A DNA stretch of 64,000 nucleotides, taken from assembly GCA_964455185.1 (NCBI GenBank), contig CAYVUR010000001.1, positions 3,892 through 67,891 of the forward strand, given 5' to 3'. This DNA is from an uncultured Gammaproteobacteria bacterium (lineage in GTDB: Bacteria > Patescibacteriota > Patescibacteriia > 2-01-FULL-39-33). Positions 4,095-58,141 of the stretch are shown piece after piece (the stretch's first letter is position 1; the number at the start of each line of letters is the position of its first letter). The notes beneath the pieces are model-generated. The model saw only the letters and a list, made by a program, of their open reading frames with translations. It did not search any database and had not been told where the DNA came from. The position numbers and the translations under genes are program-made.

Positions 4095-7000
4095 ATGTTT
4101 GACGAAAAAACACAAAATATTCATTTTGATGCCATCAGATTGAGAATTGCTTCCCCTGATGATATTCATAGTTGGTCACATGGTGAAGTTACTCGTCCTG
4201 AAACTATTAATTATCGTACTCAAAAACCAGAGAAAGATGGATTATTTTGTGAAAAAATTTTTGGCCCAATCAAAGATTGGGAGTGTTATTGTGGTAAATA
4301 TAAGAAAATTCGTTACAAAGGTATAGTTTGTGATAAATGCGGAGTAGAAGTTACTCGTTCTATAGTTCGTCGTGAACGCATGGGACATATTGATTTATGT
4401 GCTCCAGTTGCTCATATTTGGTTTTTACGTGGCATTCCATCAAAAATTGGTTTGGCTTTAGATATGTCGGTAATGAATTTAGAAAAAGTTATTTATTTTG
4501 CTGATTTTATTATTACTTCAGTTAATGAGGATTTAAAAAATCAAACTTTTGAACAATTACGCGCTGAATATAAACAATATCGTAAACAAATTGAAAGTGA
4601 TTTCGATAATCGTATCAAACAACTTGAATCTTCTGATAAAGAAAATAAAGAAGACGCTATTAATCAATTAATTAAAGCTAAAGAAGAAAAATTGAAAGAG
4701 TTAGAAGAGACAATGATAATTGCTGAAAATGAACTTAAAGAAATTAAACCTTTAAAAATTATTTCAGAACATGTTTTTCATGAATTATCTTTGAAATATG
4801 GCCATATTTTTGAAGCAGGCATTGGCGCTGAAGCGATTCGTGAATTATTGTCTAAAATTAATTTAGAAGAAACAGTTGAAGAATTAAATAAAGCAATTGC
4901 TGAATCTGTTGGTGCTAAAAAAGATAAATTAGTGCGTCGAGCTAAATTTTTTAATAATTTAATTAAAAATAAATTGCGCCCTGAGTGGATGATTATGACC
5001 ACTATTCCGGTTATTCCTCCAGATTTAAGACCAATGGTGCCGCTTGATGGTGGACGATTTGCTACTTCAGATTTAAACGATTTATATCGCAGAGTTATTA
5101 ATCGTAATAATCGTTTAAAACAATTATTAGATTTAAATGCTCCTGAAGTTATTACTCGTAATGAGAAGCGCATGTTACAAGAAGCAGTTGATTCTTTAAT
5201 TGATAATAATGCTAGACATGGCAAGACTGTAGTTGCTTCTACAGGACAAAAAAGAAATCTAAAATCTCTCGCTGATATTTTGAAAGGTAAACAAGGACGT
5301 TTCCGTCAGAATTTACTTGGTAAGAGAATTGATTATTCAGGACGTTCAGTAATTGTTGTTGGCCCTAAATTAAAATTAGATCAGTGTGGTATTCCTAAAA
5401 TGATGGCTTTAGAATTATTTAAACCATTTATCATTTCTAAATTAATTCAACGTGGTGTAGTACATAATATTCGTAGTGCTAATAGGTATATCGAAGCTAA
5501 ACATGATGATGTTTGGGATATTTTAGAGGAAGTAGTTAAAGGATCTTATGTTTTATTGAATCGTGCTCCTACTTTACATCGTTTGGGTATTCAAGCTTTC
5601 AAGCCAGTTTTAATTGAGGGTTTGGCAATTCAAATACATCCTTTAGTTTGTCCGGCGTTTAATGCTGATTTTGATGGTGATCAAATGGCTGTTCATGTTC
5701 CTCTTACTGAAGAGGCTAATAAAGAAGCGGCTGAAAGAATGCTTTCTTCTAAAAATCTTCTTAAACCAGCTAATGGTCAACCTATCGTTACTCCACAACA
5801 AGATATTATTTGGGGATGTTATTATTTGACTACTTTAAATGAGAATGAAAAAGCTAAAATTTTTTCTTCGGTTAATGAAGCTATTTTAGCCATGGATAAA
5901 GGACTTATTACTTTACAATCAAAAATTAAATTGTTTTATAGTAAAAATATTAAAAATAAAAAAGAGATTTTAGAAACATCTTTAGGAAGAATATTTTTTA
6001 ATGAAATTTTACCGGAAAATTATCCTTTTGTTAATAAACGAGTTGGTAAAAAAGATCTTTCTAAAATTTTAGCAGATATTTTAAGAAATTTTGGTCCAGA
6101 AATAACCGTAACAACTTTAGATCAAATTAAAGATATTGGTTTTAAATATCTAACTTATTCTGCTCAATCTTTAGGTATGGATGATTTAGTAGATATTCCA
6201 GAAAGAGAAAAATTAATTGAAGAAGGTAATAAGGAAGTTGATATTATTGATAGTCAATATTTGATGGGTTTACTTACTGAAGATGAAAGACATGAAAAAA
6301 TAGTTGAGAATTGGTTAAAAATTAATAATCAAATTTTGGAAAAAGTTAAAACTTCAATGAATGAAGGTAATACTATTCTTGCTATGATCGATTCTCAAGC
6401 TCGAGGCTCTTGGGGACAATTATCACAAATGATTGGTATGAAAGGTCCAGTAGTTAATCCTAATTATGAAGTTATTGAATTGCCTGTTAAATCTAACTTT
6501 AAAAAAGGTTTTAATGTTTTGGAATTCTTTATTTCTTCCCATGGTGCTCGTAAAGGTTTATCTGATACAGCTTTGCGTACTGCTTCTGCTGGTTATTTAA
6601 CTCGTCGTTTAGTTGATGTAGCTCAAGAAGTTGTAGTTAATAGTGAGGATTGCGGTGATACTGAAGGTCTTACTATTACTAAAGAAGAAAGTGAAATTAT
6701 GGGCGATAAACTTATAAATAGAGTAATAGGACGTTATGCCGCTAAAGATATTATTGATCCTAAAACTAAAAAAATTATTGTTAAAGCAGGAGATCTTATT
6801 ACTGAAGATTTAGCAGAACAATTGTCTAAATATGATATTTCAGAAATTACTGTTAGATCAGTTATGACCTGTCGCAATGTGCGAGGTGTTTGTCGCAAAT
6901 GTTATGGTTATGATTTAGCTTATAATAAACCAGTAGAATTAGGCGTTGCAGTGGGCGTAATAGCCGCTCAATCTGTAGGTGAACCAGGTACTCAACTTAC

Positions 7001-15839: not shown

Positions 15840-15869
15840 AATAAATATAGTAATTAAATAACTTAAATA

Positions 15870-15896
15870 AAAAATCGCTTAAATAAGCGATTTTTT
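15870..15896 (-). terminator. Rho-independent terminator downstream of rplT (bidirectional hairpin)
   Basis: AATCGCTT-aaata-AAGCGATT flanked by A-runs and T-runs. Confidence 0.7.
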
Positions 15897-15920
15897 ATTT
15901 ATTTAATAATTTTGTTGCAA

Positions 15921-16277
15921 TTATTTAGTAGCAGTTTTAACTTTTTCAATAATTTTAGCAAAAACTGAAGGATTTTTACTAGCTAATTCTGCTAAAACTT
16001 TACGATCTAATTCAATTTTAGCAGCCTTTAATCCAGCAATAAATTTACTGTAATTTAGATTATAGGCTCTAACAGCGGCATTAAGTTTAATTTGCCATAA
16101 AGCTCTGGCAGTACGTTTTTTCATTTTACGATCTTTATAAGCATTAGCTCCAGCTTTAATAGCAGCAGTTTTAGCTAATTTAATTAATTTTTTACGTCCA
16201 CGTTGAAAACCTTTAGTGGTTTTAAGTAAATTTTTTCTGCGTTTATTATGCATGACACCTCTTTTGACTCTTGGCAT
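15921..16277 (-). CDS. rplT: 50S ribosomal protein L20
   Basis: MPRVKRGV..KRRKNLLK..KGF.GRKK matches the bL20 N-terminus, in infC-rpmI-rplT order. Confidence 0.95.
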   Translation of the reverse strand: MPRVKRGVMHNKRRKNLLKTTKGFQRGRKKLIKLAKTAAIKAGANAYKDRKMKKRTARALWQIKLNAAVRAYNLNYSKFIAGLKAAKIELDRKVLAELASKNPSVFAKIIEKVKTATK

Positions 16278-16304: not shown

Positions 16305-16499
16305 TTAAGCGCCAATCATCCTGCGGATGTTTTTGGCATCGGCTTTAGAAATAGATTTATCTAATCTTTTTGCTCTTTTTTGTTTGCCAGATTCTCTAGC
16401 ATTAAAATGATCTTGACCAGTAGATCGTTTAATTACTTTTTTCTTTTTAGTAACTTTAAATCTTTTAGCTACTGCTTGTCTAGTTTTTATTTTCGGCAT
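16305..16499 (-). CDS. rpmI: 50S ribosomal protein L35
   Basis: MPKIKTRQAVAKRFKVTKKKKVIKR... matches bL35. Confidence 0.9.
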   Translation of the reverse strand: MPKIKTRQAVAKRFKVTKKKKVIKRSTGQDHFNARESGKQKRAKRLDKSISKADAKNIRRMIGA

Positions 16500-16510
16500 A
16501 TCATTTATAT

Positions 16511-17071
16511 TTATAATGAAAGATTTAATGATAATTTTCCTCCTACCAAAGTAATTTCTCCTTCGGTTTTTAAAGTTTTTTCTGAACCTAATTTTTCTTT
16601 AATTTTTTCTACAATTTTTTGAATACTTTGTTTAGCTAATTCAATATGTTGATTTTCGCGTCCTCGTAATTGTAATTCTATCTTAACTTTATCGCCACCT
16701 TCTAAAAATTTAACTCCTTGATTAGCTCTAACTTCCAAATCATGTTCTCCAATACGTAAAGATAATTTAATAATTTTAATTTCAGTAGTTTTTTGTTTAG
16801 CTTTATTTTTCTTTTCTTGTTTTTCTTTTTGATATTTAAAACTACCATAATCAATAAATTTAGCAATCGGAGGATTAGCTTTAGGAAAAACTTCAACTAA
16901 ATCTAGTTCTCTATTTCTAGCTTCTTCTAAGGCTTCTGCTTTAGAAACAATTCCAAGATTATTTCCGTTTTCATCAATTACAACTAATTCCTGAGCTAAA
17001 ATTTGTTCATTAACTCGGAACTCTTTGGAGTTTTCTGATTTTTGATTGTGTCCTCTAAATGATTTACGCAT
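16511..17071 (-). CDS. infC: Translation initiation factor IF-3
   Basis: INEQI...VVIDENGNNLGIVSKAEALEEARNRELDLVEV...PPIAKFIDYGSFKYQ is colinear with IF-3. Confidence 0.93.
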   Translation of the reverse strand: MRKSFRGHNQKSENSKEFRVNEQILAQELVVIDENGNNLGIVSKAEALEEARNRELDLVEVFPKANPPIAKFIDYGSFKYQKEKQEKKNKAKQKTTEIKIIKLSLRIGEHDLEVRANQGVKFLEGGDKVKIELQLRGRENQHIELAKQSIQKIVEKIKEKLGSEKTLKTEGEITLVGGKLSLNLSL

Positions 17072-17083
17072 TTTATTTAAATG

Positions 17084-17472
17084 TGGAGATGAGGGGTAAT
17101 GAGCCCCTGTCTAAGAATAAAGGGTTTTCTTGGGTTTACAAATTTAGTTGTTTTATATTTTAAGTAATCAATAAGTTAATAAAACAACAAAATACTTATT
17201 GACCCGTCTTTTAAGTTTAACCTTTCAGTTAAAGACAAACTGTAAGGCGATCCTGATGATATAACACTGCTGGCCATTTATCAGGAATCATGGGGCAATG
17301 GCTCTTGGATTAATTAAGCAAGAGCAGGGGCGAAGGTCATGCCGCTGAAAGCGGATTTAACCTTAGCCAAAAAATTGTTGGCATTTCTGCTTTTGACAGA
17401 TTTTTAACGAGATTCTGTCAATCTCGATTTGCCCAATGAAAAATTTATTCTTATCAAAACAAAAACATCCCC
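17084..17472 (-). ncRNA. ssrA: tmRNA (ssrA), ~389 nt, between smpB and infC
   Basis: The minus-strand RNA starts GGGGATG. Its 3' end GGGG-ctcatta-CCCC-TCATCTCC-A forms a T-arm and acceptor stem pairing with the 5' end, including a G3:U70 wobble (the AlaRS identity element) and A73. The internal frame GCC AAC AAT TTT TTG GCT AAG GTT AAA TCC GCT TTC AGC GGC ATG ACC TTC GCC CCT GCT CTT GCT TAA encodes a tag ending ...FAPALA*. A P2-like hairpin CGAGATT-gacag-AATCTCG is present. smpB is adjacent. Confidence 0.75.
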
Positions 17473-17534: not shown

Positions 17535-17987
17535 TTATTTTTGTTTTAAAGTTCTCTTTATTTCCCTTTGAATCTCTCTTTTTTTAATGATTTCTCTTTT
17601 GTCTATTTTTGTTTTTCCTCTAACTAAAGCAATTTCTACTTTAACTAATCTCCTATTAGTATATAGGGAAATTGGTATAATTGTCAAGCCTTTTTGAGTT
17701 TTTTTACCAATTAAAGCATCTATTTCTTTATGATTTAATAGTAATTTGCGTTTTTTATATGGATTATAATTGTTTTGTTGTCCTTGAGCTGGTTTATAAG
17801 GAGCAATATAAGCATTAACTAACCAAACTTCTTTATTAGAGTCTATTTGAATAAAACTGTTTTTAAGACTAGTTTGTCCTAATTTAATAGCTTTAGTTTC
17901 TGCTCCTGATAAAACAATTCCAGCTTGCCATTTTTCTAAAATCTCATTGTTAAATAATCCTTCTTTGTTAATAATGATTGTTTTCAT
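17535..17987 (-). CDS. smpB: SsrA-binding protein SmpB
   Basis: 150 aa, colinear with SmpB (..GAETKAIKLGQTSLKNSFIQI.., basic C-terminal tail). Confidence 0.9.
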   Translation of the reverse strand: MKTIIINKEGLFNNEILEKWQAGIVLSGAETKAIKLGQTSLKNSFIQIDSNKEVWLVNAYIAPYKPAQGQQNNYNPYKKRKLLLNHKEIDALIGKKTQKGLTIIPISLYTNRRLVKVEIALVRGKTKIDKREIIKKREIQREIKRTLKQK

Positions 17988-25008: not shown

Positions 25009-25106
25009 AGTATATTTATATTATAACAAAAAAAAGCAAAAATATTAATATTTTAATGTTTTTATTAAAAAAATAAAAAAATTCGAAAAGTGAGTTTTTA
25101 TAAGAG

Positions 25107-25178
<72 letters not shown>

Positions 25179-25191
25179 ATGAAATATTTGT

Positions 25192-25264
25192 TGCGGGGGC
25201 GGGATTTGAACCCGCGACCTCTTGGTTATGAGCCAAGCGAGCTGCCAGACTGCTCTACCCCGCG
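25192..25264 (-). tRNA. Initiator tRNA-fMet (CAT)
   Basis: CGCGGGG...GCTTGG-CTCATAA-CCAAG...GCGGG-TTCAAAT-CCCGC-CCCCGCA-A. It has a C1:A72 mismatch, G-C pairs in the anticodon stem and close similarity to canonical tRNA-fMet. Confidence 0.85.
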
Positions 25265-25278
25265 ATAATATCTGGAAA

Positions 25279-25360
25279 TGCCCGAGGAGAGATTTGAACT
25301 CTCACATATTTCTATACACGATTTTGAGTCGTGCGCGTCTACCAATTCCGCCACTCGGGC
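25279..25360 (-). tRNA. tRNA-Leu (CAA), class II with a long variable arm
   Basis: GCCCGAG-TG-GCGG..CACGA-CTCAAAA-TCGTG-TATAGAAATATG-TGAGAG-TTCAAAT-CTCTC-CTCGGGC-A. Confidence 0.8.
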
Positions 25361-25381
25361 AAAGCAAATTGGTGTTTTTAT

Positions 25382-38327: not shown

Positions 38328-41300
38328 ATGAATAATAAACTCAAGATATATTTTTTTGTTGTAGTGTCATTGTTTATGTTTTTGGCGTCCACAACTCGTG
38401 CAGAGGCGCAAGTCAATGAGATTTACATGGAGGGTAATAGTGTTCTCTGGACTGGTGATAATTTTTCTTTAAACGTGACTCCTTGTGTTGGTGATCAATA
38501 TATAGAAGGAACCGCTTTTACTAAAAATCAAGCTGATTGTATTGAAAAACTTATTCAAAACCTTGATAAGAATACACAAAAAACAATTCAAGCTTACATG
38601 AAAAAACGTTTACGTGAAGAGTGGTGGGATCAAATGAAAACTAAGCTTAAAGAAGCAATGGCTGGAGCATTTAAAAAGTCATTAGAAAATATAGCACGTC
38701 AAATTGGTAGAGATACTGCTGTTTGGGTTGCTTCTGGCGGTCGTGGCCAAAAGCCATTGTTTATTACTGAAGGTTGGGGTGCTTATATGAAAAATATTGC
38801 TGATGTAGCTTTAGGAGATTTTATTGACCAAATAGGACAGAGTTTTGGTGTTGATTTATGCGAACCAGATTTTAATATTAAATTAGCTATTATTCTTGGA
38901 ATAGATGATAGGCAAACGAGAAGAGTTAGATGTAGTTTTTCTAAAATTATTCAAAATTGGGAAAGTGCTATTTCTAACTTTAATTTTTCTGTAGAATATC
39001 GCGCTGCATTAAGACCAGGTGAAAATGATATTTCAGTAGCTTTAATATTGGCTGACAAAAAACATAATTATATTGCTGGAATTGTGGAAGCAGCGGCTAA
39101 AGAGGCAGAAACTCAAGGTCTTTGGGCTAATATTAAAGATATTGCAGGCAAAATTCTTACTCCCGGTAGTATGATTCATGATAAATTTAAAAGTGATATT
39201 CATGATACTTCTAAATTAGGCTGGGAAACATTTACTGATACTATTTGGGATTTAATAGGTTCATTTTTAGATACTTTAGTGGGACAATTAGCTCTTAATC
39301 TTAAAAATGGATTTTTTTCTTCCAGTCCTGTTAAAAGTGATGATAATTCAAATCTTCCTGATTTAAGTTCTTTATTTAATCCTTGGTCTTCTCCAGTAGT
39401 AGCAGGAATTAAAGGTGCTGAAGGTAAATTTAATTATCTTAAAACTTCAACCATTAAAGTTGGCGGTCAATATGATTTGCTTAATAAACTTACTGCTTGT
39501 CAAGATCCTAATAATCCGGGACCAATGGGTTGTGTGTTAGATGTTAATTTAGCTTCTGCTATTAGACAAAAAACTTTAGTTAAAGATTTACCAGAAGAAA
39601 TTTTAAATCGACCCTTTGTTCCTTTAGCTAATAAAGTTGAAAATCCTAATGAGTATTTTAGTTTACGCGGCGTAACAATTTTAAGAAAATATCGTATTGT
39701 TCCGGTTGGTTGGGAATATGCGGCTAATTTAATTTCTCAGTTAGCAGCAAAAAATCCAAATTTCAAAGCCCCGACTCTTAAACAAATAATGAACGAATTT
39801 AATAATACTAACAGTGATTACTTTGGTTTAATTGATCCTTTTTGGGTATTGAAAGCCCCAGATATGTTCTGTCGTCGCGAAGGGTATGGACCGCAAAATT
39901 CTTTTTCTGGAGATCAAAATGGAGCAATATTTAGAGATAATTATTGTGCTGACGAACAACAATGTATTAAAGAAAACGATGATGGTTCTTGTGCTGCTTA
40001 TGGTTATTGTACAGAAGAACGTCGTGTTTGGAATTTTGGTAAATCTTGCGAGCCTAGATATAATACTTGCAATACTTATGTTAATCGTTTGGGACAAACC
40101 AATTATTGGTTAACTAATACTTTGGATTTCAGAGATTGCGATCAATCAACAGTTGGTTGTCGTTGGTTTAGTATAGAATATAATCCAGTTTCGAAATATT
40201 GGGTTGGAGCATATGAAAGTAATTTTTATACAGTTAATAACGAAACTACAGAGCAACAAATAACTCTTTCTGATGATAGTGGTTGGTTAGTAAGAGAAAA
40301 TCAATATGTTAGTAATAATAAACAATTAATAATGGCTTCTCCTTGCACTGAGGTTTTATGCAAGGATCCAGCAATGAATGGTAAATGTAATTTTGTTAAT
40401 AGGGCTTGTAAATTTAACACTGGTCTTTCTTGTAGTATACCTAGTGGAGGCATCAATTGTCGTTTACCTATTTGTGATAGCCAAACTGATGCTTTTGCTT
40501 CGGGAAATGGAGGATTTGAAGAACAGGAAGGTATTTATACTGATAATGCTAAAAAATGGAGTGATGAACTTTCCTTTATTACTCTAAATAATAGAGCTTA
40601 TAGAGAAATTAATGGCGGTAAATCAGGAGCTGGTTTACGAGTTTTAGCTAATGGCTCACCATCAGATATTTTATTATTATCAGATTCTTTTAGTGTAAAT
40701 CCCGGATCGTCTTACCATTTAAAATTTGACCTGCGAGGTTCTGTGGGAAATCAGGGAAAAGTTTTTGTATTTGTTTATGGTGGAGATAAAAGAATTAATT
40801 CTAATAATTTATCTGATATTAAAATTCTTGGTTCTATAGAAATAAATGCAGGTTATATAAGTAATAATTGGACATCTTTTAGAAGTTCTGAATTTCAAGT
40901 ACAAGAGTTTTCTACAGCTACAATAGCAATTATGGCGCCACAAGGAACTTTTGCTGATATTAGATTTGATAACTTTTCTTTAAATGAAGTTAGTAGTAAA
41001 TGTTTTGAAAATTCGGTTACAGTTTTTTCTTCAATAAAGCAAGAAGATAGGGAAAATATTAAAGATATTTATTTTGATCGAGATGCAGAATCTTGTTCAC
41101 CGGATTCTGCTGGATGTAGTCAATTTTTACGCTTGAAGGCTGGGATTGGTACTAATTTAGTTTATGATGGAGGTTTTGAATATGGTGATTTTGATTGGAA
41201 TAGTTATTGGGGGGGTAGTAAATTAAGTCCGATAGCAGAAATTAAAGATGGTAAAGCAAAATTAAGATATTCAACTGCATCTTATAGTACATATAAACCT

Positions 41301-44300
41301 ATAAATGTAGAACCAAATGATTATTATACAGTTTCTTTTGATGCCGCTCAAACATCAGATACTAATCATCATGAAATAAAATTTGAGATGGCTTTTGTTA
41401 GTGATATAAATTATGCTGGAAAATATCATTATGAAGTTAAAGATACTAATTGTAGCCAAACTGGAGATAACACAATTACTTTAATTTTTACTCCAGAATC
41501 TACTAATATGAAGCGTCAATCTTGTTGGTTTAAGGTACCTAGTGGAGCTAAGATATTACTATTTAAACCTTTTGCTTCATCTGAAACAGCTGAAATTTAT
41601 TTTGATAATTTAAAGATAGAGAAAGTTAATTATCCTTCTCTTACTCCAACTGCTTATACTCCTTATAATTTAGAAGATATTCAAAATCAACAAGTTACTT
41701 ATTTAAGAAAGGCTCCTGATTATTTCAATTGTTATTATTATACAGCAGAAGGAGTTAAGCGTTGGCCTATAACACCAAGTGAATTAAATTCAGTATTGGC
41801 CAATCGTAGTTTAGCTTGTTCGCAGTTTGCGGGAGTTTGTGCGCCATATGAAGTAGGGTGCGAATTATATAAACCACTTAATGGTGATCCTACTGTGCCG
41901 GGTGTTGCTAATGATATTGATGTTTGTCCAGCTGAATGCGCTGGTTATCAAGTTTATAAACAAGAAGTCACTAGATTTGTAAATGATAAATATCGTCAAT
42001 TTATAACTGACAATAAAATTAAATATTGTTCGGCTTCTTATGCTGGTTGTGATGAATTTACTAATCTAGATGAATTAGGCAGAGGAGCGGAAGCTAAAGA
42101 ATATTATTCAGCTATTCGCGCTTGTCAAAAACCAGACATTGATGATGGCGCTTTTTATACTTGGGAAGGAAGCGATGTTACAGGTTATCAGCTTAAAGCT
42201 TATAATTTAAAAAAATCTACTAGTACAGATCCCGACCCCAATGGAATCGGTGGAATTGCTCCTTGTACCAATCTTTTTTATGACAATCAAGGTAAACCTA
42301 AATGTAATGATCCTAGTACATGGCCTACTTCTTCCGAGGAACTTGAAAAGGCTGGTTTCTGTACTGTTAACGATTTAGTTACTAACGCTGATTGTCGTCA
42401 ATTTTATGATGTTGAAGGTAATGTTCATTATAGATTATTATCTCGTACTATTTCAGTATCTAATAATTGTCATCCTTATCGTCGTACTATGACACAAAAT
42501 TCTACGGCAGAAACTGAAGAAGATTGTAAAAGTCATAGTGGTTGGTGGAATAGTAATAACGAATGTATTTACATGGCAATTCCAGGAGAAGGAATGAAAT
42601 GTCCGGCCTCAGCTAAAGGTTGTCGCGCTTATACGGGAAATAAAGGTAATAATGTTCGTAATATAATAGAAGTTGCTAATTTTGGTTTGCAGTCTTCAAC
42701 TACTGGAAGTTGGGTAGGAGCAGACGGTACGTCTAATGGATTATTCGTGTCTTCCGAATCAACCTTTCCCGGTGGCAATTCTTTGATGAATCGAGGTACC
42801 ACAGTTATTAAGCATCCAGTAAAGATAAAGAAAGGTAAAACTTATATTTTAAGTTTCTGGGCTAAAGGCAGTGACAATTTTAGTATGGATTCGATAAAGT
42901 TTACTGGCGCTGGTACAGATACTTCTAAATATTTTGCCGTTAAACAAATTCGAGATGATAATTTGCTTTCTAATCGTCCTAACTTTAAACAAGATTGGAA
43001 TTTATATCAATTAGGGCCGGTTTTTGTTGATTGGGAGCCATCAGATAATGAATATTTAGAATTTAATTTACCAACTGGAGCAGGAATTACTGCTTATAAC
43101 ATTTATTTAGATAATGTAATTCTAAAAGAAATTGTTAATAATGTTTATGCTATTGAGAATTCTTGGTATACTCCTGTTTCTTGTGATAATAAATTAGATG
43201 ATCCTGACGGATCAAAGAGTATAACTACTGGAAGTTGTCAAGATTCAGCTTCAGGTCGTTGTTCAATTGGAGAAATGTTGGGTTGTACTGGTTATACTAA
43301 TAGAGCTAATCAAACTGTTTATTTAAAATCTTTTGCTTCATTGTGTCGTTCTGAAGCAGCGGGTTGTGAAGCTTTAATTGATACTAAAAATAATAATACT
43401 TCTTTAGCTAAGAGTTATCATGTAGGTGATAATTCACAAGTTAATGTTTCCGCTGATGAACAAGTTTATTTAGTAAATAGTCCACAATTTTCATGTCCTG
43501 CTTCTGATAAAGGTTGTACTCCATATGGATTGCCAATTATTGATCAGCAAGATAATGTTATAAGTTATCAAAGTGTTTTTATTAAGAATCAACCGGATAA
43601 ATACGAAATTGATCTTTGTTATGCTAAAAATCTTTGGTGTGAAGAATACTCTGCTAATGGAGGAGCAAAATATTTCAAAGACCCACACAACAAAATTTGT
43701 GTTTATGGTTCCACTAGAACCTCTACTTCTGCTATTTGGTATAAAATTGGCACTAATGGTGATCCTTGTGATGTAACATTTAATCAAACTTATGGTACTG
43801 GTTATGGTAGTTTAGAAAAGAAATTACAACCAGTAGGAGTAGTTTCGGGAGCTACTTATTCAAGTAGTGGAGAACCGGTTTATACGGGTTGGGCAGGAGC
43901 TTGTTCTCAGGATCAATCTGGTTGTACAGAATTTGTTGATCCACTTACAGAGATGTATAAGGAGGAGCTAGGAAAACTTAATTCCGATAATTCCGTTTCT
44001 TATTTACTCAAAGCAAATACTTTATATTCTATTTCTAATGATAGTTTTTATAAAATAAATATAAATTCAGATAATTGTGAATTTATTCCTCAAGACATTA
44101 CTTATTCTCGTCCAGGAGATACTAGTAGTGGCTATCTTTATTATGCTAAACCTAATTCAGATGATAAGTATTGTAATGTTACTATTTCATCATCTGATAA
44201 TAAAATTAAAGTAGCTAAAGCGGGTGTTTATTATAAGATAGCTAATTCAGTTGATAAATCAAGTTGTAATGGTTTAGTTGATTTTGGTACAGGCTGTGTA

Positions 44301-47300
44301 TTATTCAATGACCGTAGTGGAATTGATTATTCTACTACTACCATGTTTGGTAGAAATAAGTATCTCAATTTTGATGCTAATTATACTTATTTTATTCAAG
44401 GATATCCTTTTTCTTCTCAAAAAGTAGGACCAAAAACCGCTCAAGAAGCATTAAATAGTGGTAGCACACAAAATAGTAATAATACAGATATTATTTTACA
44501 AGTTAAACCAGATAGAACTTGTTCTAATTGGCTTGCTTGTACTTCTTATATTAAAGGCGATGGCAATTCTAGTAATGAGAAGTTTGGTGAGAAAGATTAT
44601 TGTTTAAGTGTTAATGCTTGCGATGAATTAAGCGAAGATAATCAATGTAGTCATTTAGTTTCCACTAACAAAGAAATTATTGACCTTACAAGTACAACAA
44701 CGAGATTATCTTATTTAAATAAAACAGGTTATTCTGTTCCCGGACTTTATCCTGTTGATCAAATGAAATATGAGGGCCAAGGTGCTAATGTTGGTAATGG
44801 TAATTTTGAAGTAAAACTTAATAGTGGCAAACCATTAAGTTGGGTTAATTGGTCACAGAATATAGCTTGGGATCCATCAATGTTTAGTGTTGTTTATGAT
44901 CCTAAAAATGCTCCAGAAGGAAGTAATTATTTAAGGATTAATTTTAAATCAACAGCAAAGTCAGAGATAATAGATGTAATTTCTGGACAAGATTATTATT
45001 TATCAGCTTGGATAAATACTGAATCTTTAAAATCTTCTTCTTCACCATTAAAAGAAAGAGCTGAAATAGTAGTAATGAATGCAGAGAAAGATGAAGAAAT
45101 AAATAGAGTTATGGTTTCTGCTGGATTGCCTTGGGCTCGAGTTACTCGTAAATTTACTGCTAATGCTAAATCAATTTATTTACTTTTAAGAAATTCTCCA
45201 GATGGTCCCCCATTTAGTACTAGTAATACTGGTCAACCAGTAGGTTATTCTCTTTTTGATGATATACAAATTACTCCTGTACTTAATGATAATGGAGATG
45301 GTTTAATGCTTCCTAAAACTTGTCGTATCTATCCATCGGCAGATGCTCCAGCTTGTAAATATAGTTCTGGTAATACTAATTATTATGGTTGGTATGGCTA
45401 TTGTTTAACTCCCGATCCTAATCGTCGTAGCGATTGTTTACAATGGTTTCCTGTTGATAAAATTAAAGGTGAATTTAGTAGTGACTACGCTTTAGGTTAT
45501 GATAATCGAGCGCCTTTGTATTATTGTATAGATTGGGACATTGTCTCTTTTAATATTAATGATTTAGGAGTAATTGGAAATATTGGAGAAGACGTTAAAG
45601 CAAAATATAGACAAAAAGTAAGTGCAATAATAACTGATAATAGAAAAGTAACACCGATTGCTTTTAATATTGATCCTGAATATGCTGGAATGTTTCGTTA
45701 TCCTTATATTTATAGATTTATTTTTGTAGGAGCATTTGGTGGACTTCAAAGAGATAATAATTTTAAACTTTTACCAATACTCACTTTTATGTATCCAAAG
45801 TGTGCGGTAGGATTTTTTGGATATCTGCCAATTTTTCATGGTAGTGATTGTAAAGATATTTTTAAATCACATTCAATTTTTAGTAGTAGCACAGAAGAAG
45901 AAATTAAAAACGAAGTTTGGATAAAAGATATTTTTGAAAGTTGTTTAGCTCCTGAGTTTAAGAAAGGTGGAAATGAAGGTTTTTGGATGGATAAAATGTG
46001 TGGAGATGGATTGGAAAATGGAGAGTATTGGCATGGTAAACAAATTGGTAAAAGTAGTAATCAAACATATAAAGGAACATATAAAGGCTCTTTATATTTT
46101 TCTTCTTCTCTTCCTCTTTCTTCTCCTTCTTCTTCAAGCACTGATTTAATAGAATTTACATCTAATAATTCTAAGACTGAAATTGCTGATTTTGATGGTA
46201 GTATAGATGGATATATGGATGATTATACATATAAAAATGATGGTAAAAGAATTGATTATTATCAATGTCTTAATAGAGAAAAAAAAGTTTGGGATTGGGA
46301 CAATAATGATTGTTCAGTAGAAGTATATGATTTTTGTTATTATAAAAATACTTTTTGTGAACTAGATAATCCAAATAATTATGAAGGCGAGAGTAGTTGT
46401 AGAGAATTTTGTTTTGGTACTCTTGATAGTATTGATGACGAAATAGAAAGTTGTATTAAAGAAAAAGTTCAACAAGCCAAAGCAGACAGAGGAGATTGCA
46501 ATTTTGCCGGCTTAAATATAAGCCAATGGATTAGATGTGTAGTTAATAAATTAGTAAACATAATTTCAAGTATATGGCTCAGTGTATCAAATATTGCTTG
46601 GAACGACACTGAAGATGTTTGGGGTGGTTTTGGAGCTTTTGGTTTTGTTATAGAAGGTATAGATATTAAACCATTAGTATTTCCCACTACTTTTTCTGGG
46701 GCTTTGAATGCTCCTAATATAATATTCGCTATAGAATTAGTAGCTAATGCTATTAAAGCAATTGGAGGCCAAGCTACAGAAAATATATTTATTGGAGTAG
46801 GTGCTTCAGGAGTTAAAATTATAACTGATCAAGATTCAAAGTATGCCAGTTCTTTGACTGATCCCGATCCTAATGTTTCTGGAAATGTTTTGGGTTATGC
46901 TTGGTTTTTAAATACATCAGAATTAAAAGGTGCTGGATTAGTTGGTCATTTTGAAGGATATATGAATATTCCTTATTGTAAAAAATTTGTTAAAGTTGTA
47001 ACAGCTTCAGGACAGAATAAAGCTTATTATAGTAAAGTGGGATTAGGTTCTAATTATAGTTATACTGTTAACGCTCAATCTTTTGGACCAAATCCAGCTT
47101 CAACTGCGACTTTTACTTATAATATGGATTATATGCCTTTTGGAGCTATTGTGCCGCCGTCATCTGGTAATATAGATGAACCAATAACTTGGGATAGTAA
47201 AACACTTTCTAGTATTGATCAGGGAAATATTAATTTACCAGGTGTAAATGTTTCTGGATTACAATTAATACAACCTACAGTTATAGGAGTTAATTATTCA

Positions 47301-48194
47301 GCAACTAAACAACCTTTATTTTTTGAAACGCCGGTATTAAGTTATGGTAATCCATATCAAGCTAGAGCTGGTGGAAGCGTTATAGAAAATAGTAAAGCTA
47401 ATTTTTTTAATAATAGTTTTAAAAGGATAGCGGTATTTTTAAATACTACAACAACACTTCAACAACTTTTTGCTAAAAGTTATGGTATTTTTATTTGGCA
47501 TTGGGATGAAATTAATATTTTTAATCCGAATTTAATATTAAAAGAATGGTTATTTTTTACTAATTCAAATGACAATACTAATTGTGTTCAAGATAATGGA
47601 AATAAGATTTGTACTCCTGTAAATGGTGTAAATGGTTCAGGGGGAAGTTATAAAGAAGAATTAGCAAGCCTTGATAATTGGGATAATGTAAGTGCAAAAG
47701 GTTTAGGATCAATAATTGATAATATTAAACTTGAAATAATTAGTAAATATGAAACTATTTCTTTAGCTAAATTAAGCTTTAATGTTACAATACCAGTTGA
47801 TCAATTACCAATCAAATCTTATACCATTGCTTGGGGCGATGGAACAGTTGATACTTTTTCAGGTGCTTCTCTTAATGATAAGCCAAACTCGTCCAGTACT
47901 TTTACGGTTTATCATACTTATGATTTCAATAAACTTAAGGATATTTCTATTTCTGGCTCCAATTTTAATTTATCAATGCCCTGTTGTGTAAAGAGTGGAT
48001 CATATGAGTGTACTGAGCAGTTGTCTATTGTGCCAAATGCTCCTGTTTCATCTGCATGTACCAACGCTACCTGTACAGCTACCATCTATATTTCGGTTAG
48101 AGATAATTGGGATAAAGTTAATTATTGTAATATTACTACAACCACTCAAGGAATAAATTATAATTATGCAACTGTAAGTATAAGTTCAAATTAA
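38328..48194 (+). CDS. Giant (3288 aa) secreted Cys-rich multi-domain surface protein with CBM4/9-like jelly-roll modules and a C-terminal PKD-like domain
   Basis: Signal peptide MNNKLKIYFFVVVSLFMFLASTTRAEAQ. At least four galactose-binding-like modules (GGFEEQEG.., YDGGFEYGDFDWNSYWGG.., LQSSTTGSWVGADGTSNG.., GNFEVKLNSGKPLSWVNW..). At least 8 recurrences of a Cys hairpin C-x2-3-[SA]-x-G-C-x2-[FY]. A PKD-like IAWGDGTVDTF..VYHTY motif near the C-terminus. Confidence 0.7.
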   Translation: MNNKLKIYFFVVVSLFMFLASTTRAEAQVNEIYMEGNSVLWTGDNFSLNVTPCVGDQYIEGTAFTKNQADCIEKLIQNLDKNTQKTIQAYMKKRLREEWWDQMKTKLKEAMAGAFKKSLENIARQIGRDTAVWVASGGRGQKPLFITEGWGAYMKNIADVALGDFIDQIGQSFGVDLCEPDFNIKLAIILGIDDRQTRRVRCSFSKIIQNWESAISNFNFSVEYRAALRPGENDISVALILADKKHNYIAGIVEAAAKEAETQGLWANIKDIAGKILTPGSMIHDKFKSDIHDTSKLGWETFTDTIWDLIGSFLDTLVGQLALNLKNGFFSSSPVKSDDNSNLPDLSSLFNPWSSPVVAGIKGAEGKFNYLKTSTIKVGGQYDLLNKLTACQDPNNPGPMGCVLDVNLASAIRQKTLVKDLPEEILNRPFVPLANKVENPNEYFSLRGVTILRKYRIVPVGWEYAANLISQLAAKNPNFKAPTLKQIMNEFNNTNSDYFGLIDPFWVLKAPDMFCRREGYGPQNSFSGDQNGAIFRDNYCADEQQCIKENDDGSCAAYGYCTEERRVWNFGKSCEPRYNTCNTYVNRLGQTNYWLTNTLDFRDCDQSTVGCRWFSIEYNPVSKYWVGAYESNFYTVNNETTEQQITLSDDSGWLVRENQYVSNNKQLIMASPCTEVLCKDPAMNGKCNFVNRACKFNTGLSCSIPSGGINCRLPICDSQTDAFASGNGGFEEQEGIYTDNAKKWSDELSFITLNNRAYREINGGKSGAGLRVLANGSPSDILLLSDSFSVNPGSSYHLKFDLRGSVGNQGKVFVFVYGGDKRINSNNLSDIKILGSIEINAGYISNNWTSFRSSEFQVQEFSTATIAIMAPQGTFADIRFDNFSLNEVSSKCFENSVTVFSSIKQEDRENIKDIYFDRDAESCSPDSAGCSQFLRLKAGIGTNLVYDGGFEYGDFDWNSYWGGSKLSPIAEIKDGKAKLRYSTASYSTYKPINVEPNDYYTVSFDAAQTSDTNHHEIKFEMAFVSDINYAGKYHYEVKDTNCSQTGDNTITLIFTPESTNMKRQSCWFKVPSGAKILLFKPFASSETAEIYFDNLKIEKVNYPSLTPTAYTPYNLEDIQNQQVTYLRKAPDYFNCYYYTAEGVKRWPITPSELNSVLANRSLACSQFAGVCAPYEVGCELYKPLNGDPTVPGVANDIDVCPAECAGYQVYKQEVTRFVNDKYRQFITDNKIKYCSASYAGCDEFTNLDELGRGAEAKEYYSAIRACQKPDIDDGAFYTWEGSDVTGYQLKAYNLKKSTSTDPDPNGIGGIAPCTNLFYDNQGKPKCNDPSTWPTSSEELEKAGFCTVNDLVTNADCRQFYDVEGNVHYRLLSRTISVSNNCHPYRRTMTQNSTAETEEDCKSHSGWWNSNNECIYMAIPGEGMKCPASAKGCRAYTGNKGNNVRNIIEVANFGLQSSTTGSWVGADGTSNGLFVSSESTFPGGNSLMNRGTTVIKHPVKIKKGKTYILSFWAKGSDNFSMDSIKFTGAGTDTSKYFAVKQIRDDNLLSNRPNFKQDWNLYQLGPVFVDWEPSDNEYLEFNLPTGAGITAYNIYLDNVILKEIVNNVYAIENSWYTPVSCDNKLDDPDGSKSITTGSCQDSASGRCSIGEMLGCTGYTNRANQTVYLKSFASLCRSEAAGCEALIDTKNNNTSLAKSYHVGDNSQVNVSADEQVYLVNSPQFSCPASDKGCTPYGLPIIDQQDNVISYQSVFIKNQPDKYEIDLCYAKNLWCEEYSANGGAKYFKDPHNKICVYGSTRTSTSAIWYKIGTNGDPCDVTFNQTYGTGYGSLEKKLQPVGVVSGATYSSSGEPVYTGWAGACSQDQSGCTEFVDPLTEMYKEELGKLNSDNSVSYLLKANTLYSISNDSFYKININSDNCEFIPQDITYSRPGDTSSGYLYYAKPNSDDKYCNVTISSSDNKIKVAKAGVYYKIANSVDKSSCNGLVDFGTGCVLFNDRSGIDYSTTTMFGRNKYLNFDANYTYFIQGYPFSSQKVGPKTAQEALNSGSTQNSNNTDIILQVKPDRTCSNWLACTSYIKGDGNSSNEKFGEKDYCLSVNACDELSEDNQCSHLVSTNKEIIDLTSTTTRLSYLNKTGYSVPGLYPVDQMKYEGQGANVGNGNFEVKLNSGKPLSWVNWSQNIAWDPSMFSVVYDPKNAPEGSNYLRINFKSTAKSEIIDVISGQDYYLSAWINTESLKSSSSPLKERAEIVVMNAEKDEEINRVMVSAGLPWARVTRKFTANAKSIYLLLRNSPDGPPFSTSNTGQPVGYSLFDDIQITPVLNDNGDGLMLPKTCRIYPSADAPACKYSSGNTNYYGWYGYCLTPDPNRRSDCLQWFPVDKIKGEFSSDYALGYDNRAPLYYCIDWDIVSFNINDLGVIGNIGEDVKAKYRQKVSAIITDNRKVTPIAFNIDPEYAGMFRYPYIYRFIFVGAFGGLQRDNNFKLLPILTFMYPKCAVGFFGYLPIFHGSDCKDIFKSHSIFSSSTEEEIKNEVWIKDIFESCLAPEFKKGGNEGFWMDKMCGDGLENGEYWHGKQIGKSSNQTYKGTYKGSLYFSSSLPLSSPSSSSTDLIEFTSNNSKTEIADFDGSIDGYMDDYTYKNDGKRIDYYQCLNREKKVWDWDNNDCSVEVYDFCYYKNTFCELDNPNNYEGESSCREFCFGTLDSIDDEIESCIKEKVQQAKADRGDCNFAGLNISQWIRCVVNKLVNIISSIWLSVSNIAWNDTEDVWGGFGAFGFVIEGIDIKPLVFPTTFSGALNAPNIIFAIELVANAIKAIGGQATENIFIGVGASGVKIITDQDSKYASSLTDPDPNVSGNVLGYAWFLNTSELKGAGLVGHFEGYMNIPYCKKFVKVVTASGQNKAYYSKVGLGSNYSYTVNAQSFGPNPASTATFTYNMDYMPFGAIVPPSSGNIDEPITWDSKTLSSIDQGNINLPGVNVSGLQLIQPTVIGVNYSATKQPLFFETPVLSYGNPYQARAGGSVIENSKANFFNNSFKRIAVFLNTTTTLQQLFAKSYGIFIWHWDEINIFNPNLILKEWLFFTNSNDNTNCVQDNGNKICTPVNGVNGSGGSYKEELASLDNWDNVSAKGLGSIIDNIKLEIISKYETISLAKLSFNVTIPVDQLPIKSYTIAWGDGTVDTFSGASLNDKPNSSSTFTVYHTYDFNKLKDISISGSNFNLSMPCCVKSGSYECTEQLSIVPNAPVSSACTNATCTATIYISVRDNWDKVNYCNITTTTQGINYNYATVSISSN

Positions 48195-48216: not shown

Positions 48217-51200
48217 ATGTTTTCTAGAAGAAAGAACAAAATTTTGATAAATATTGTGGCTACAATAATAATAGTCGCAATGTGTTTTGGTGTAGCTAGG
48301 CCGGTTAGAGCTGGTTGGCTGAATAATTTAGGTGCTTTTGGTGGTTTTGTTGGAACAGTTGCTGCTGGAGCAGCTATTGGAAGCTTATTTGCTATTAGTG
48401 CGCCGGTTTCTGTTCCGGTGGCTTTAATTGGTGGAACGATTTTGACTGCTGTGACTGAAGCTGGCGTCATGTATGTCATAAGTAGTAGAAAAGTTCAAGA
48501 ATCTGCTAATTCAATAGTAACTCCTATAGTTATGAATGCTGCGTTAACTGATACCTCCATTGGAACTTATGTTGCTGGTACTAACTTGCCCGAAAGTACA
48601 GGGGGAGTTTTAGAAACGTCTGCAAAAGCAATTGAGAGAGGAGTTAAAAAAGAAGATGTACAAGCGGCTATAGGAGGCATGAATTACAGTTATCAGCAAA
48701 CCGAGGCACTAAAAGCATCTAACCAGCAAATAAAAGATGATCCCAAGAATTCAACCATAGGTGATATTATTGCTCGCATGTTTGCTTGGCTTTTGTATTA
48801 CATAGCCGTAGGATTGGGTTGGGTTTTAATGTTGATTAGTTTTGTAATGCTTAAAATTGCTGTTTATAATAATTTTCTTAGAGAAGACGCAATACATTTA
48901 GGTTGGCAAATTATCAGAGATATTTGTAATAATTTTTTTATCATTTTATTACTTATTACTGCAATTAGTACTATGTTGCGTCAAGGAGACTTTAAAGATT
49001 GGCGTAGTATGTTACCTAAAATTTTAGTTGCTGCAGTAATAATTAATTTTTCTTTATTAATGTGTGGTATTTTTATTGATGTTTCACAAATTTTTACTCT
49101 TACTTTTGCTAGCCCGCTTAATTCTATTACAGGATACAATGTTATTTTAGCGGCTATGGGTATACCAAGCAGTATGCAATTAAGCAATCTTTCTTCAGAA
49201 GTAGGTACCACTGGAATTGAAAATATAGATCTAATAGCGGCTTTAATTTATGCGACAATAATAACTTTTGTTACAATAATAGTTATTACAGCAATAACAG
49301 TATTACTAGCTTATCGTATTATTATGTTATGGTTTTTAGTAATACTTTCTCCTTTACCTATTCTTTTATCTCTCTTAAAGAGAGGAGCTAGTTATGTTAA
49401 TTTATGGTGGGAAGAATTTTTTAAATATCTAATAGTAGGACCTGCAGTGATGTTTTTCTTATATTTATCCTTTATGTTTATGGGTAAAATGAATAATACA
49501 GGAACAGCTGGAAATACTTCTAATGTTTTAAATATTAATACTCAAAGTCTACCAACAGGTGCAACTATAGGTAGCGGCTCTAATGTAACTTTAACTTCAG
49601 GTAAAGATACTGTTAGTTTGTCTAATGCCGCTAGCCCTAATGGAGTCATTAATTTTTTAATTGTTATTAGTTTAATGGCCGGGTCTTTATTAATGGCTCA
49701 AAAAATTGGAACAAAAGGTTCTAAATTTGCTGGACAAAGTTTAACTTGGCTACAAAATCAAGGTAAGCGTTGGAGTGGATTTAATTTAGCTAAAAATTTA
49801 GCAAAATCAGCACCTAGAACTGTTGGCACCGCCATTGATGATAAATTGGGCCTTCGTCAAAAATTGTATGGAACAGCTTTTGCTGCTGGTGGTAAATATA
49901 TTCCTTTTGTTGGACAGGATTTAGGTAAAAGAATTGGCGTATTGGAAGAAGGAACACAGAGAAGAATTAATGCAAAATATAGTGATTTAGCTAAAGGTTA
50001 TCAAATTGATAAAATGAATGAAGAACAATTAAGAAAATTAGCTTCTAAAGGTGGATCTGCTGGAGTGGTGGCTACTCAAGCTTTAATGAAGAAAGGTTTA
50101 TTTAGAGATGATGATGAATTAAATAGAGCAAATAATATTGATATTATTAAGAAAGCTAGAGAGGCACTTAAAGGAACTGATTTAGGTAATACTTTTGATG
50201 AAAATCTTAAAAAATATAATCCTAGTTTAGCTTTTTCTACTATTTATGATGGTAAATTAGATAAATTACGTAGCGATTTAAAACTTGGAAAAATTGATAT
50301 TGATAAGTTAATGGCTGGTATGACTCCCGAGCAGATCAATAAACTCAAAGCGGATTTGGGTGGTGGCAATGGCGCTGTAGCTAAGTTTATTTTGAGTAAT
50401 TCTAGTGATATTGGTAAAACCTTAAAAGGTATGAATAAACAAAGTCGAGAATTGGTCACTCAAGAAATTGATCATAAAACTTTTGCTAAGCGCATCAATC
50501 CTGATGGTACGATTGCTGAATATGATGATGAGACTAGAAGGAAATATTTATCTTCAAAACCTGCTGATATTATGAAGATTTTTGATATGAATGACAAAAC
50601 TGAATTAGAAAAGGCTAGAAAACAATTTAGTAAGAATAGAGAGACTATTTTGAGGGAAATGGATCCAGAAGGTATGACCTCTGAATTTATTAAGAATTTT
50701 GGAGATTTATTTAATTTTAAAGAATTAGAGAAAAATTTCTCTGATCGAAGTTCTGAACATAAAACTGCTGCGACTAGAGCTTTGCAAGAACATCTTGATG
50801 CTTCACTAAAAGAGGTGAACTTTGAACAATTGGCTCAAAATTTGGCTCGAGCTATAGCCAGTGGAGATAAAGTTGCTATAGAAAAAGCTAAGAAAGAGCA
50901 AGCAGATATGGATGAATTAGTTAAGAAAAATTTATTGGCCCAAGGAAATTTATCACCATCAGTTATTAAAGCTTCTGGCTCTGATGATGCTTTAGAGAGG
51001 ATTTTGGGTAATCTTAATGGCGATGATGCTAGTAAAATTAATTGGGGTAATTTATCTGATCAAGAGAAAAATATTATATCTCAACATATTAATCCTAATG
51101 CTCTTAAATTGTTAGCAACTAGAGGAGATAATAATGAGTTGATAAGGGGAGTTCGCGATAATATTAGAACTAGAGCGAAGATAGATAATGATAATGAACA

Positions 51201-57329: not shown

Positions 57330-57420
57330 TGGAGAGGTGGCTGAGTGGCTGAAAGCGGCGGTTTGCTAAACCGTTGAACGTCTATTTGGGCGTTCCGGGG
57401 GTTCGAATCCCCCCTTCTCC
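57330..57420 (+). tRNA. tRNA-Ser (GCT), class II long variable arm
   Basis: GGAGAGG-TG-GCT..GCGGT-TTGCTAA-ACCGT-[21-nt variable arm]-CGGGG-GTTCGAAT-CCCCC-CTTCTCC-G. Confidence 0.85.
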
Positions 57421-57438
57421 GAATATTTTGATATATTA

Positions 57439-57525
57439 AGGAGAGGTGGCAGAGTGGTTGAATGCGTCAGTCTTGAAAACTGAAGTCCCCTTAAAAGGAC
57501 CGCGAGTTCGAATCTCGCCCTCTCC
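57439..57525 (+). tRNA. tRNA-Ser (TGA), class II long variable arm
   Basis: GGAGAGG-TG-GCA..TCAGT-CTTGAAA-ACTGA-[variable arm]-GCGAG-TTCGAAT-CTCGC-CCTCTCC-G. Confidence 0.85.
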
Positions 57526-57556
57526 GCAAGAATTTTTTCAAAAATATAATAATTAT

Positions 57557-58054: not shown

Positions 58055-58068
58055 TATTTTTATATTAA

Positions 58069-58141
58069 GTGCCCGTAGCTCAGGGGATAGAGCGCCAGCT
58101 TGCGGAGCTGTAGGTCGCAGGTTCAATTCCTGCCGGGCACG
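58069..58141 (+). tRNA. tRNA-Arg, anticodon read as GCG
   Basis: GTGCCCG-TA-GCTC-AGGGGATA-GAGC-G-CCAGC-TTGCGGA-GCTGT-AGGTC-GCAGG-TTCAATT-CCTGC-CGGGCAC-G. G3:C70 rules out Ala. The 7-nt loop TTGCGGA places GCG at positions 34-36. Confidence 0.65.

Follow-up and report, generated by a model that had tools for sequence, protein, structure and literature searches.

The window analyzed here, i.e., the whole 64-kb stretch of DNA to whose positions all coordinates refer, carries on its minus strand a 463-nt spacer between smpB and infC, the gene coding for the initiation factor IF3, in which no open reading frame (ORF) of at least 60 amino acids (aa) is found. This report deals with ssrA, the gene of transfer-messenger RNA (tmRNA), which lies in this spacer, and with its linkage to smpB, which codes for the protein partner of tmRNA, and to the downstream genes infC, rpmI and rplT, all located on the same strand (Table 1). 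The host is a Buchananbacteria-like member of the Patescibacteria: the nearest relatives of its SmpB protein belong to that phylum, with Candidatus Buchananbacteria at the top (70% identity). The G+C content of the window is ~30%. The same 466 nt, without a single difference, separate the smpB stop from the infC start codon in two independent public assemblies, ENA ERZ27245800 and Logan SRR5580902, which rules out an assembly artefact for the ssrA-infC junction. As for the AUG start of infC, the N-terminus MR[KR]SFRG that it yields is kept in relatives and public assemblies give the same gene call.

The RNA encoded in the gap between smpB and infC is almost certainly a tmRNA, as an earlier note on this DNA had proposed from the folding of the minus strand. 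The Rfam family RF00023 (tmRNA) matches the spacer over the full length of the model (positions 1-374 of 374) with 119.7 bits, compared to a gathering score of 47, and an E value of 3.5e-46; a covariance-model search of this kind was one of the checks suggested in the note. Direct reading bears out the pairing of GGGGATG with CATCTCC described there, with 7/7 acceptor pairs formed, G3:U70 among them, and both alanine identity elements, G3:U70 and A73, are present. The GGGG/CCCC T-arm with its unusual loop, CUCAUUA, is likewise seen on direct reading as well as in the Rfam alignment. The 3′ CCA is not encoded, the sequence being ACAU. An alignment of eight tmRNAs was assembled from the window, three relatives (L001, L002, and L003; L numbers designate the loci compared) and four metagenome contigs located by their exact T-arm sequence. 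From this alignment, RNAalifold predicted the acceptor stem, helix 2, the tag hairpin, the pseudoknot hairpins and the T-arm, and compensatory changes, i.e., changes on both sides that keep the pairing, occur in 52 of the 92 predicted pairs. The pseudoknot PK1 lies a short way upstream of the resume codon and has compensating variants among relatives (GGCGG/UCGCC, GAUAG/CUAUU, and GGCA/UGCC).

The tag frame read inside the gene in the earlier note, ANNFLAKVKSAFSGMTFAPALA followed by a stop, was recovered both by direct reading and by ARAGORN, which prints this tag at gene positions 91-159 after in silico repair of the loops. Its C-terminus is hydrophobic and Ala-rich (…APALA), with GCU as the last codon before UAA. 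The length of 22 codons is kept in 8/8 aligned sequences, in which 12, 9, and 21 of the 22 columns vary at the first, second and third codon positions, respectively, and homologous tags such as ANLFSRVKDAFRVLTPAYALA and AKNTLAKVKAAFSMPAFAPVAA are reported by ARAGORN in relatives. Judging from this pattern of variation, the tag frame is under purifying selection, and is hence taken to be translated and selected as part of a gene that is not decaying; the window tmRNA is very probably functional.

Table 1. Features of the smpB-rplT region, listed in the direction of transcription (window positions)
Feature	Positions	Strand	Details
smpB	17535..17987	-	Protein partner of tmRNA; Pfam SmpB, 156.3 bits
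Putative sigma-70-type promoter of ssrA	17658..17687	-	TTGACA (17687-17682), 18 nt, TATACT (17663-17658); smpB codons 100-110; 11/12 matches
ssrA, one-piece tmRNA gene	17081..17472	-	Rfam match; encoded mature RNA 17084-17472
Acceptor stem, 5′ strand	17466..17472	-	GGGGAUG, G1 = 17472; sequence reading
D-loop equivalent (positions 8-17)	17456..17465	-	UUUUUGUUUU, without the consensus GG; Rfam consensus AucuGGaUUC
PK1 pseudoknot	17394..17426	-	Stem 1 CGAGAU/AUCUCG; stem 2 UGACAGA/UCUGUCA, modelled by Rfam
Tag frame	17314..17382	-	Resume codon GCC (17382-17380), 22 codons, stop TAA (17316-17314); encodes ANNFLAKVKSAFSGMTFAPALA
T-arm	17092..17108	-	5-bp stem AGGGG/CCCCU (17108-17104, 17096-17092); 7-nt loop CUCAUUA (17103-17097)
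Acceptor stem, 3′ strand, and discriminator	17084..17091	-	CAUCUCC (17091-17085); A (A73) at 17084
ssrA-infC junction	17072..17083	-	CAUUUAAAUAAA, inferred infC 5′ leader after the 3′ cut; without Shine-Dalgarno sequence, promoter or terminator
infC (IF3)	16511..17071	-	AUG start; Pfam IF3_N and IF3_C
rpmI (L35)	16305..16499	-	Pfam Ribosomal_L35p
rplT (L20)	15921..16277	-	Pfam Ribosomal_L20
Terminator-like hairpin	15864..15901	-	17-bp stem then T-rich tail; probable unit end

The most unusual structural point of the locus is the joint loss of two conserved motifs of the elbow, a loss found in many apparently functional tmRNAs of the phylum. In the window, the T-loop CUCAUUA retains only the U55 and C56 equivalents of the canonical UUCRAnY, and the D-loop has a single G in the Rfam alignment (UUUUUGUUUU). 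L001 and seven metagenome contigs have exactly this T-arm, and the tRNAs of the window have ordinary GGUUCAAUUCC T-arms. The canonical T-loop is a consensus feature of RF00023, not a condition for membership, and the elbow was surveyed in 36 Patescibacteria tmRNAs (the window and 35 Rfam hits). A canonical T-loop is found in 19 of them, all 19 with the GG of the D-loop, whereas the T-loop is non-canonical in the other 17, all of which are missing the GG (Fisher p = 1.2e-10, a value calculated without phylogenetic correction). The non-canonical T-loops include CUCAUUA, UGCGAAU, CGCACUA, and UGCAAGA, as well as loops of 6 nt such as UUCAUC and UCCAAU. Watson-Crick pairing of the variant T-loops with the D-loops, considered by inspection of the sequences, is disfavored, as it would be incompatible with the G·A pairs atop helix 2. 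When the columns of SmpB were compared with the elbow type, some proved specific to a group (e.g., window residues 11, 71, and 75) and none common to both non-canonical groups, one of which is a single clade; no SmpB residue signature explaining the joint loss of the motifs was found in this comparison.

Because this tRNA-like corner is altered, the window tmRNA is missed by a standard gene finder. ARAGORN, which the earlier note had also put forward as a check, reported six tRNAs and no tmRNA when run on the whole window. It detects the gene only when T-loop and D-loop are both set to consensus, and not after single repairs of the T-loop (in four versions), the D-loop or the CCA end. Among the 36 Patescibacteria tmRNAs, 18 were found by ARAGORN; the 18 missed comprise 15 of the 17 with a non-canonical T-loop and 3 of the 19 with a canonical one.

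Turning to the expression of ssrA, the 62-nt spacer that separates it from smpB in the window contains no convincing promoter, and the corresponding spacer measures between -18 and +15 nt in 16 of 34 relatives, so the promoter cannot sit there in these 16 loci. A sigma-70-type site lies within the smpB coding sequence itself (Table 1), and L001 carries the same type of TTGACA/TATACT site at the same smpB codons. In a codon-level alignment of Patescibacteria, the synonymous positions of both hexamers are fixed, whereas the six intervening codons drift freely. At the promoter site, Leu is encoded by TTG in 32 of 38 sequences compared to a usage of 24% in the rest of these genes (binomial p = 8e-15), Thr by ACA in 25 of 35 (26% elsewhere; p = 2e-8), and Thr by ACT in 19 of 20 (34% elsewhere; p = 2e-8). 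After Tyr, Patescibacteria have either Thr (ACT), as in TATACT, or Asn (AAT), as in TATAAT. The 42 control sequences from other phyla mostly retain the G-L-T…Y residues, with Phe or Leu after Tyr, and none of them reaches a promoter score of at least 11/12, compared to 25 of 39 Patescibacteria. Furthermore, none of the four Patescibacteria loci in which ssrA does not lie directly downstream of smpB (L006, L031, L034, and L075) has retained the motif, whereas 31 of the 34 loci with ssrA downstream still score at least 9/12 (Fisher p = 4.7e-4). Taken together, these comparisons give good grounds to believe that a conserved ssrA promoter is written into the smpB coding sequence. Since a conserved sigma-70-type promoter appears to be embedded in smpB, ssrA would not rely on the promoter of smpB; it is probably independent of it, with ssrA-infC-rpmI-rplT as the core unit and read-through from smpB as an option.

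In several relatives, smpB and ssrA share sequence. The smpB frame overlaps the tmRNA gene by 8 nt in L015, L022, and L028 (each at 4443-4450) and in L035 (2947-2954), and by 18 nt in L016 (4421-4438), and the TGA stop codon of smpB lies in these loci within the tmRNA acceptor strand GGGGGUGA. There, RNase P cutting at G1 would deprive the smpB mRNA of its stop codon, and the resulting non-stop message could serve as feedback.

On the other side of the gene, the Rfam match stops 9 nt ahead of the ATG of infC (17071-17069), to which the distance from the discriminator is 12 nt. The gap of 9 nt without terminator pointed out in the earlier note is real, being identical in both independent assemblies, but it is not the peculiarity that it was made out to be: tight junctions recur in the phylum. 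A tblastn search with the IF3, L35, and L20 proteins of the window recovered the order smpB-ssrA-infC-rpmI-rplT from 24 of 38 Patescibacteria loci and from none of the 42 loci of other phyla. The gap is often 35 nt or less: in 14 relatives, no more than ~35 nt separate the tmRNA from the first in-frame start candidate for infC. For instance, this gap is 14 nt in L004 (ATG), 3-12 nt in L070 and L074 (ATT), 5-14 nt in L030, and 13 nt in L058. Among the contigs with the same T-arm as the window, ssrA and infC are ~19 nt apart in L086 and L087, and ~95-105 nt apart in L001, L084, and L085. No terminator-like site was detected between ssrA and infC or anywhere between smpB and rplT on the minus strand, the first one being the hairpin that follows rplT (15901-15864). 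In two relatives, a tRNA-Leu gene follows the tmRNA gene on its 3′ side after 6 nt (L024, 2309-2315) or 16 nt (L026, 4875-4891), an arrangement that implies a putative precursor shared by both RNAs and, with it, that tmRNA may join a multi-RNA precursor in this phylum.

The start of infC varies among relatives. The first in-frame start candidates are AUU, AUA, AUC, or UUG, not AUG, in L070/L074, L030, L028, L017, and L021/L015, which fits the known autoregulation of IF3 through its start codon. In L022 (4773-4792), an IF3-like frame without standard start codon overlaps the tmRNA gene at its 3′ end. The spacers flanking ssrA in L001, the closest relative (4443-4519 and 4913-4985), carry common direct repeats of 24 nt (71% identity), 28 nt (86%), and 13 nt (100%), spaced by ~454-469 nt, and the leader and trailer of the tmRNA are thus paralogous in this locus; the window has no counterpart of these repeats. 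A stalk formed by leader and trailer that would bracket the tmRNA in the style of rRNA operons was also considered for the window and discarded, as the best duplex (17651-17473 with 17083-17000, -15.8 kcal/mol) was equalled by 20% of shuffled sequences.

Signals that would allow separate expression of infC were looked for as well. When the 150 nt preceding infC were scanned in 17 loci, the top-scoring sigma-70-like sites mostly reached 7-8/12 (8/12 in the window), with a single one of 10/12; they vary in position and are missing in three loci, and hence no conserved promoter was found in this interval across these loci. The ssrA-infC spacer of L001 revealed neither a promoter-like nor a terminator-like site in the scan. 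These results speak against a promoter of infC, whether in the spacer or within the 3′ part of ssrA. A cis-regulatory RNA near infC, such as the L20 leader, was rejected, for the Rfam scan gave nothing at E ≤ 1 besides the tmRNA and two chance-level hits. As regards the translation of these messages, only 4 of the 42 ORFs of the window are preceded by a core resembling a Shine-Dalgarno (SD) sequence, and TAnAAT boxes located up to 40 nt upstream of start codons number 26 compared to 6.9 expected (~3.8-fold), often at 5-22 nt from the ATG, which points to leaders that are, as a rule, very short or absent in this genome. No TAnAAT box occurs within 40 nt of infC. An SD-less leader of ~12 nt for infC is ordinary in such a genome. 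In addition, the 3′ CCA is encoded neither in ssrA nor in any of the six tRNA genes of the window (25106-25361 and 57330-58141), and the organism must therefore use a CCA-adding enzyme.

From these observations, a likely course of expression can be outlined, in which a functional one-piece tmRNA is excised from the transcript of a unit, ssrA-infC-rpmI-rplT, driven by the promoter lying in smpB. Transcription would start near 17651, downstream of the smpB-embedded sigma-70-type promoter, with a leader of ~180 nt that RNase P would cut off at G1 (17472). In the absence of a terminator, RNA polymerase would read through infC, rpmI, and rplT up to the hairpin at 15901-15864. This read-through from ssrA into infC appears likely. 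Indeed, co-transcription with infC is favored because a gap of 9-12 nt is too small for a terminator or a promoter, because no conserved infC promoter was found in 17 loci, because the gene order is recurrent, and because a tRNA gene follows the tmRNA gene in two relatives. The tmRNA would then be freed by endonucleolytic cleavage at the discriminator or immediately behind it and receive its CCA, and the same cleavage would release the mRNA of infC-rpmI-rplT, whose leader of ~12 nt, CAUUUAAAUAAA, is A/U-rich and SD-less. In Bacillus subtilis, RNase Z processes CCA-less tRNA precursors. By analogy, an RNase Z-type cut is plausible since neither ssrA nor the six tRNA genes of the window encode CCA, and the identification of the nuclease as RNase Z-like is put forward tentatively. 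In E. coli, the 5′ end of pre-tmRNA is cut by RNase P, and its 3′ end is produced by endonucleases and exonucleases (PMC3968760). The co-transcription of smpB, ssrA, infC, rpmI, and rplT proposed in the earlier note accordingly stands from ssrA onward as the best comparative reading, whereas the dependence on the promoter of smpB which it entailed gives way to the conserved promoter within smpB.

Several points weigh against this reconstruction. The motif is missing in L061, L070, and L074 despite the presence of ssrA downstream (L070 and L074 are equal in every comparison), the spacing of 18 nt departs from the optimum of 17, the -10 hexamer is TATACT, and the comparative counts ignore phylogeny. 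The transcription start, the processing sites and the read-through are predictions made from sequence, no RNase Z gene was seen, although no search aimed at one was made, and an RNA without both conserved elbow motifs could in principle be impaired. RF00023 revealed no second tmRNA in the 64-kb window, which is the sole part of the genome searched. Finally, a weak site, TTGTAA-16-TATTCT (8/12), lies inside the 3′ part of ssrA and ends 42 nt upstream of infC. The latter would suit a scheme in which infC-rpmI-rplT has its own promoter in the 3′ part of ssrA, or is transcribed leaderless from a cryptic -10 at the junction, and in which the tmRNA end and the mRNA end are made independently. The infC promoters of E. 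coli lie inside the upstream gene thrS, short or leaderless mRNAs seem common in the genome studied here, and the ssrA-infC spacer of ~95-105 nt in L001, L084, and L085 is long enough to hold signals. Yet the spacer of L001 has no promoter-like site, no TAnAAT box is found within 40 nt of infC in the window, and structure tightly constrains the 3′ part of the tmRNA. While the site in smpB is fixed at 11-12/12, those upstream of infC mostly score 7-8/12, are variable and are absent in three loci, so that separate expression of infC is held to be unlikely.

At the other extreme, all five genes from smpB to rplT could form a single operon transcribed only from a promoter ahead of smpB, the motif within smpB being kept for the sake of mRNA structure or codon context. 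The lack of a terminator between smpB and rplT, the -10-like boxes (TATAAT and TATACT) in the divergent region upstream of smpB, and the abutting or overlapping of smpB and ssrA in many relatives agree with such an operon. It is nevertheless improbable, as both hexamers are near the sigma-70 consensus with a legal spacing and are synonymously fixed while the intervening codons drift, and as the motif vanishes exactly where ssrA is not downstream and is not kept by controls with the same amino acids. The locus could also be suspected to be a decaying, non-functional tmRNA gene with destroyed elbow motifs, given that its T-loop and D-loop deviate from motifs needed for SmpB binding in E. coli and that ARAGORN rejects it. 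This view is very hard to sustain in the face of the T-arm shared without change by L001 and seven metagenome contigs, the compensatory changes in helices, the kept length and third-position drift of the tag frame, the intact smpB that adjoins the gene, and the loss of both motifs common to 17 of 36 Patescibacteria tmRNAs. Transcription of ssrA-infC-rpmI-rplT from the smpB-embedded promoter, with excision of a working tmRNA, is thus preferred.

If this preferred reading is extended to the phylum, Patescibacteria may have reorganized trans-translation in its expression as well as in its architecture, a proposal in three parts that is advanced, as a whole, with some reserve. Under its first part, the smpB-embedded promoter would drive the tmRNA together with infC-rpmI-rplT, and excision of the tmRNA would free a nearly leaderless IF3 message; the arrangement suggests that tmRNA, IF3, L35, and L20 are made together, and the supply of ribosome rescue would then be tied to that of an initiation factor. 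Under the second, about half of the tmRNAs of the phylum would have abandoned the otherwise universal elbow contact between the GG of the D-loop and the UUC of the T-loop, in which case SmpB and tmRNA would hold the elbow together in another way. Under the third, the location of the smpB stop inside the tmRNA in some relatives would lead, upon processing, to a non-stop smpB mRNA and possibly to a feedback loop. In itself, the locus is a gene missed by one annotation tool, and its interest comes from the linked loss of motifs, the conserved ssrA-infC operon and the smpB-internal promoter. No description of the ssrA-infC linkage, of the smpB-internal promoter or of the elbow variants of Patescibacteria was found in the literature searched, the coverage of which is incomplete and makes for weak evidence of novelty.

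These variants also have practical consequences. In a survey of 2031 bacterial genome projects, BRUCE and ARAGORN found 1983 tmRNAs versus 2037 for Rfam, i.e., ~97% (PMC4131195). Pipelines based on ARAGORN will wrongly score about half of the genomes considered here as devoid of tmRNA, which bears on claims of gene loss in reduced genomes. Natural variants missing both elbow motifs, always jointly, offer a direct way to test the purpose of the elbow contact. Moreover, the way in which very small, SD-poor genomes may pack their signals is illustrated by a coding sequence with a promoter fixed inside it and by the proposed excision of a stable RNA 9-12 nt before a start codon.

Other observations were made on the records and on the rest of the window. 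Three public records of metagenome-assembled genomes (L003, L004, and L027) with a smpB-ssrA-infC locus of the Patescibacteria type and the same tag family are titled “uncultured Gammaproteobacteria,” titles that look like taxonomic mislabels; L017, L022, L030, and others with this type of locus are titled “Saccharibacteria.” On the plus strand of the window, a giant ORF of 3288 aa (38328-48194), whose sole Pfam match is to the carbohydrate-binding CBM_4_9, is followed by an ORF of 1106 aa (48217-51537) without any Pfam match. A protein of 640 aa, also encoded on the plus strand (54105-56027), bears a TraG P-loop/AAA_10/HerA-like ATPase domain of the type IV secretion/conjugation kind.

Compared to the standard one-piece tmRNA, of which E. 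coli SsrA and RF00023 are the references, the window tmRNA has the same 7-bp acceptor stem with G3:U70 and A73, 5-bp T stem, long helix 2, PK1 ahead of a GCN resume codon and hydrophobic …APALA tag end, and SmpB is encoded alongside. It differs by its T-loop, CUCAUUA in place of UUCRAnY, by a D-loop without GG, by a CCA that is not encoded, by the lack of a terminator of its own and of an intergenic promoter, and, with respect to E. coli SsrA, by a tag of 22 residues versus 10-11. The frequent neighbors of smpB were listed as ssrA, ratA/rnfH, and RNase R, with infC not named (Hudson, Lau and Williams 2014; PMC4131195), and neither an embedded promoter nor a link to infC is described there. The smpB gene of Carsonella overlaps ssrA and would yield a non-stop smpB mRNA (PMC4131195). 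Several relatives resemble Carsonella in having the smpB stop within the tmRNA acceptor strand, whereas smpB and ssrA are 62 nt apart in the window. Unlike Bacillus, in which an L20 leader (RF00558) is known, the window has no such element at E ≤ 1. The start codon of infC, which is an autoregulatory AUU in E. coli, is AUG in the window, with AUU, AUA, or AUC as candidates in several relatives. The E. coli operon thrU-tyrU-glyT-thrT-tufB is a co-transcript of tRNAs and an mRNA. As proposed for the window, a stable tRNA-like RNA is cut there from a transcript that continues into a gene for a translation factor; here, however, the excised RNA would be a tmRNA, the downstream message infC-rpmI-rplT, and the gap only 9-12 nt. 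A parallel in gene order is the thrS-infC-rpmI-rplT cluster of E. coli, in which the same trio, in the same order, is fed from the upstream gene, a position that thrS holds in E. coli and ssrA would hold here.

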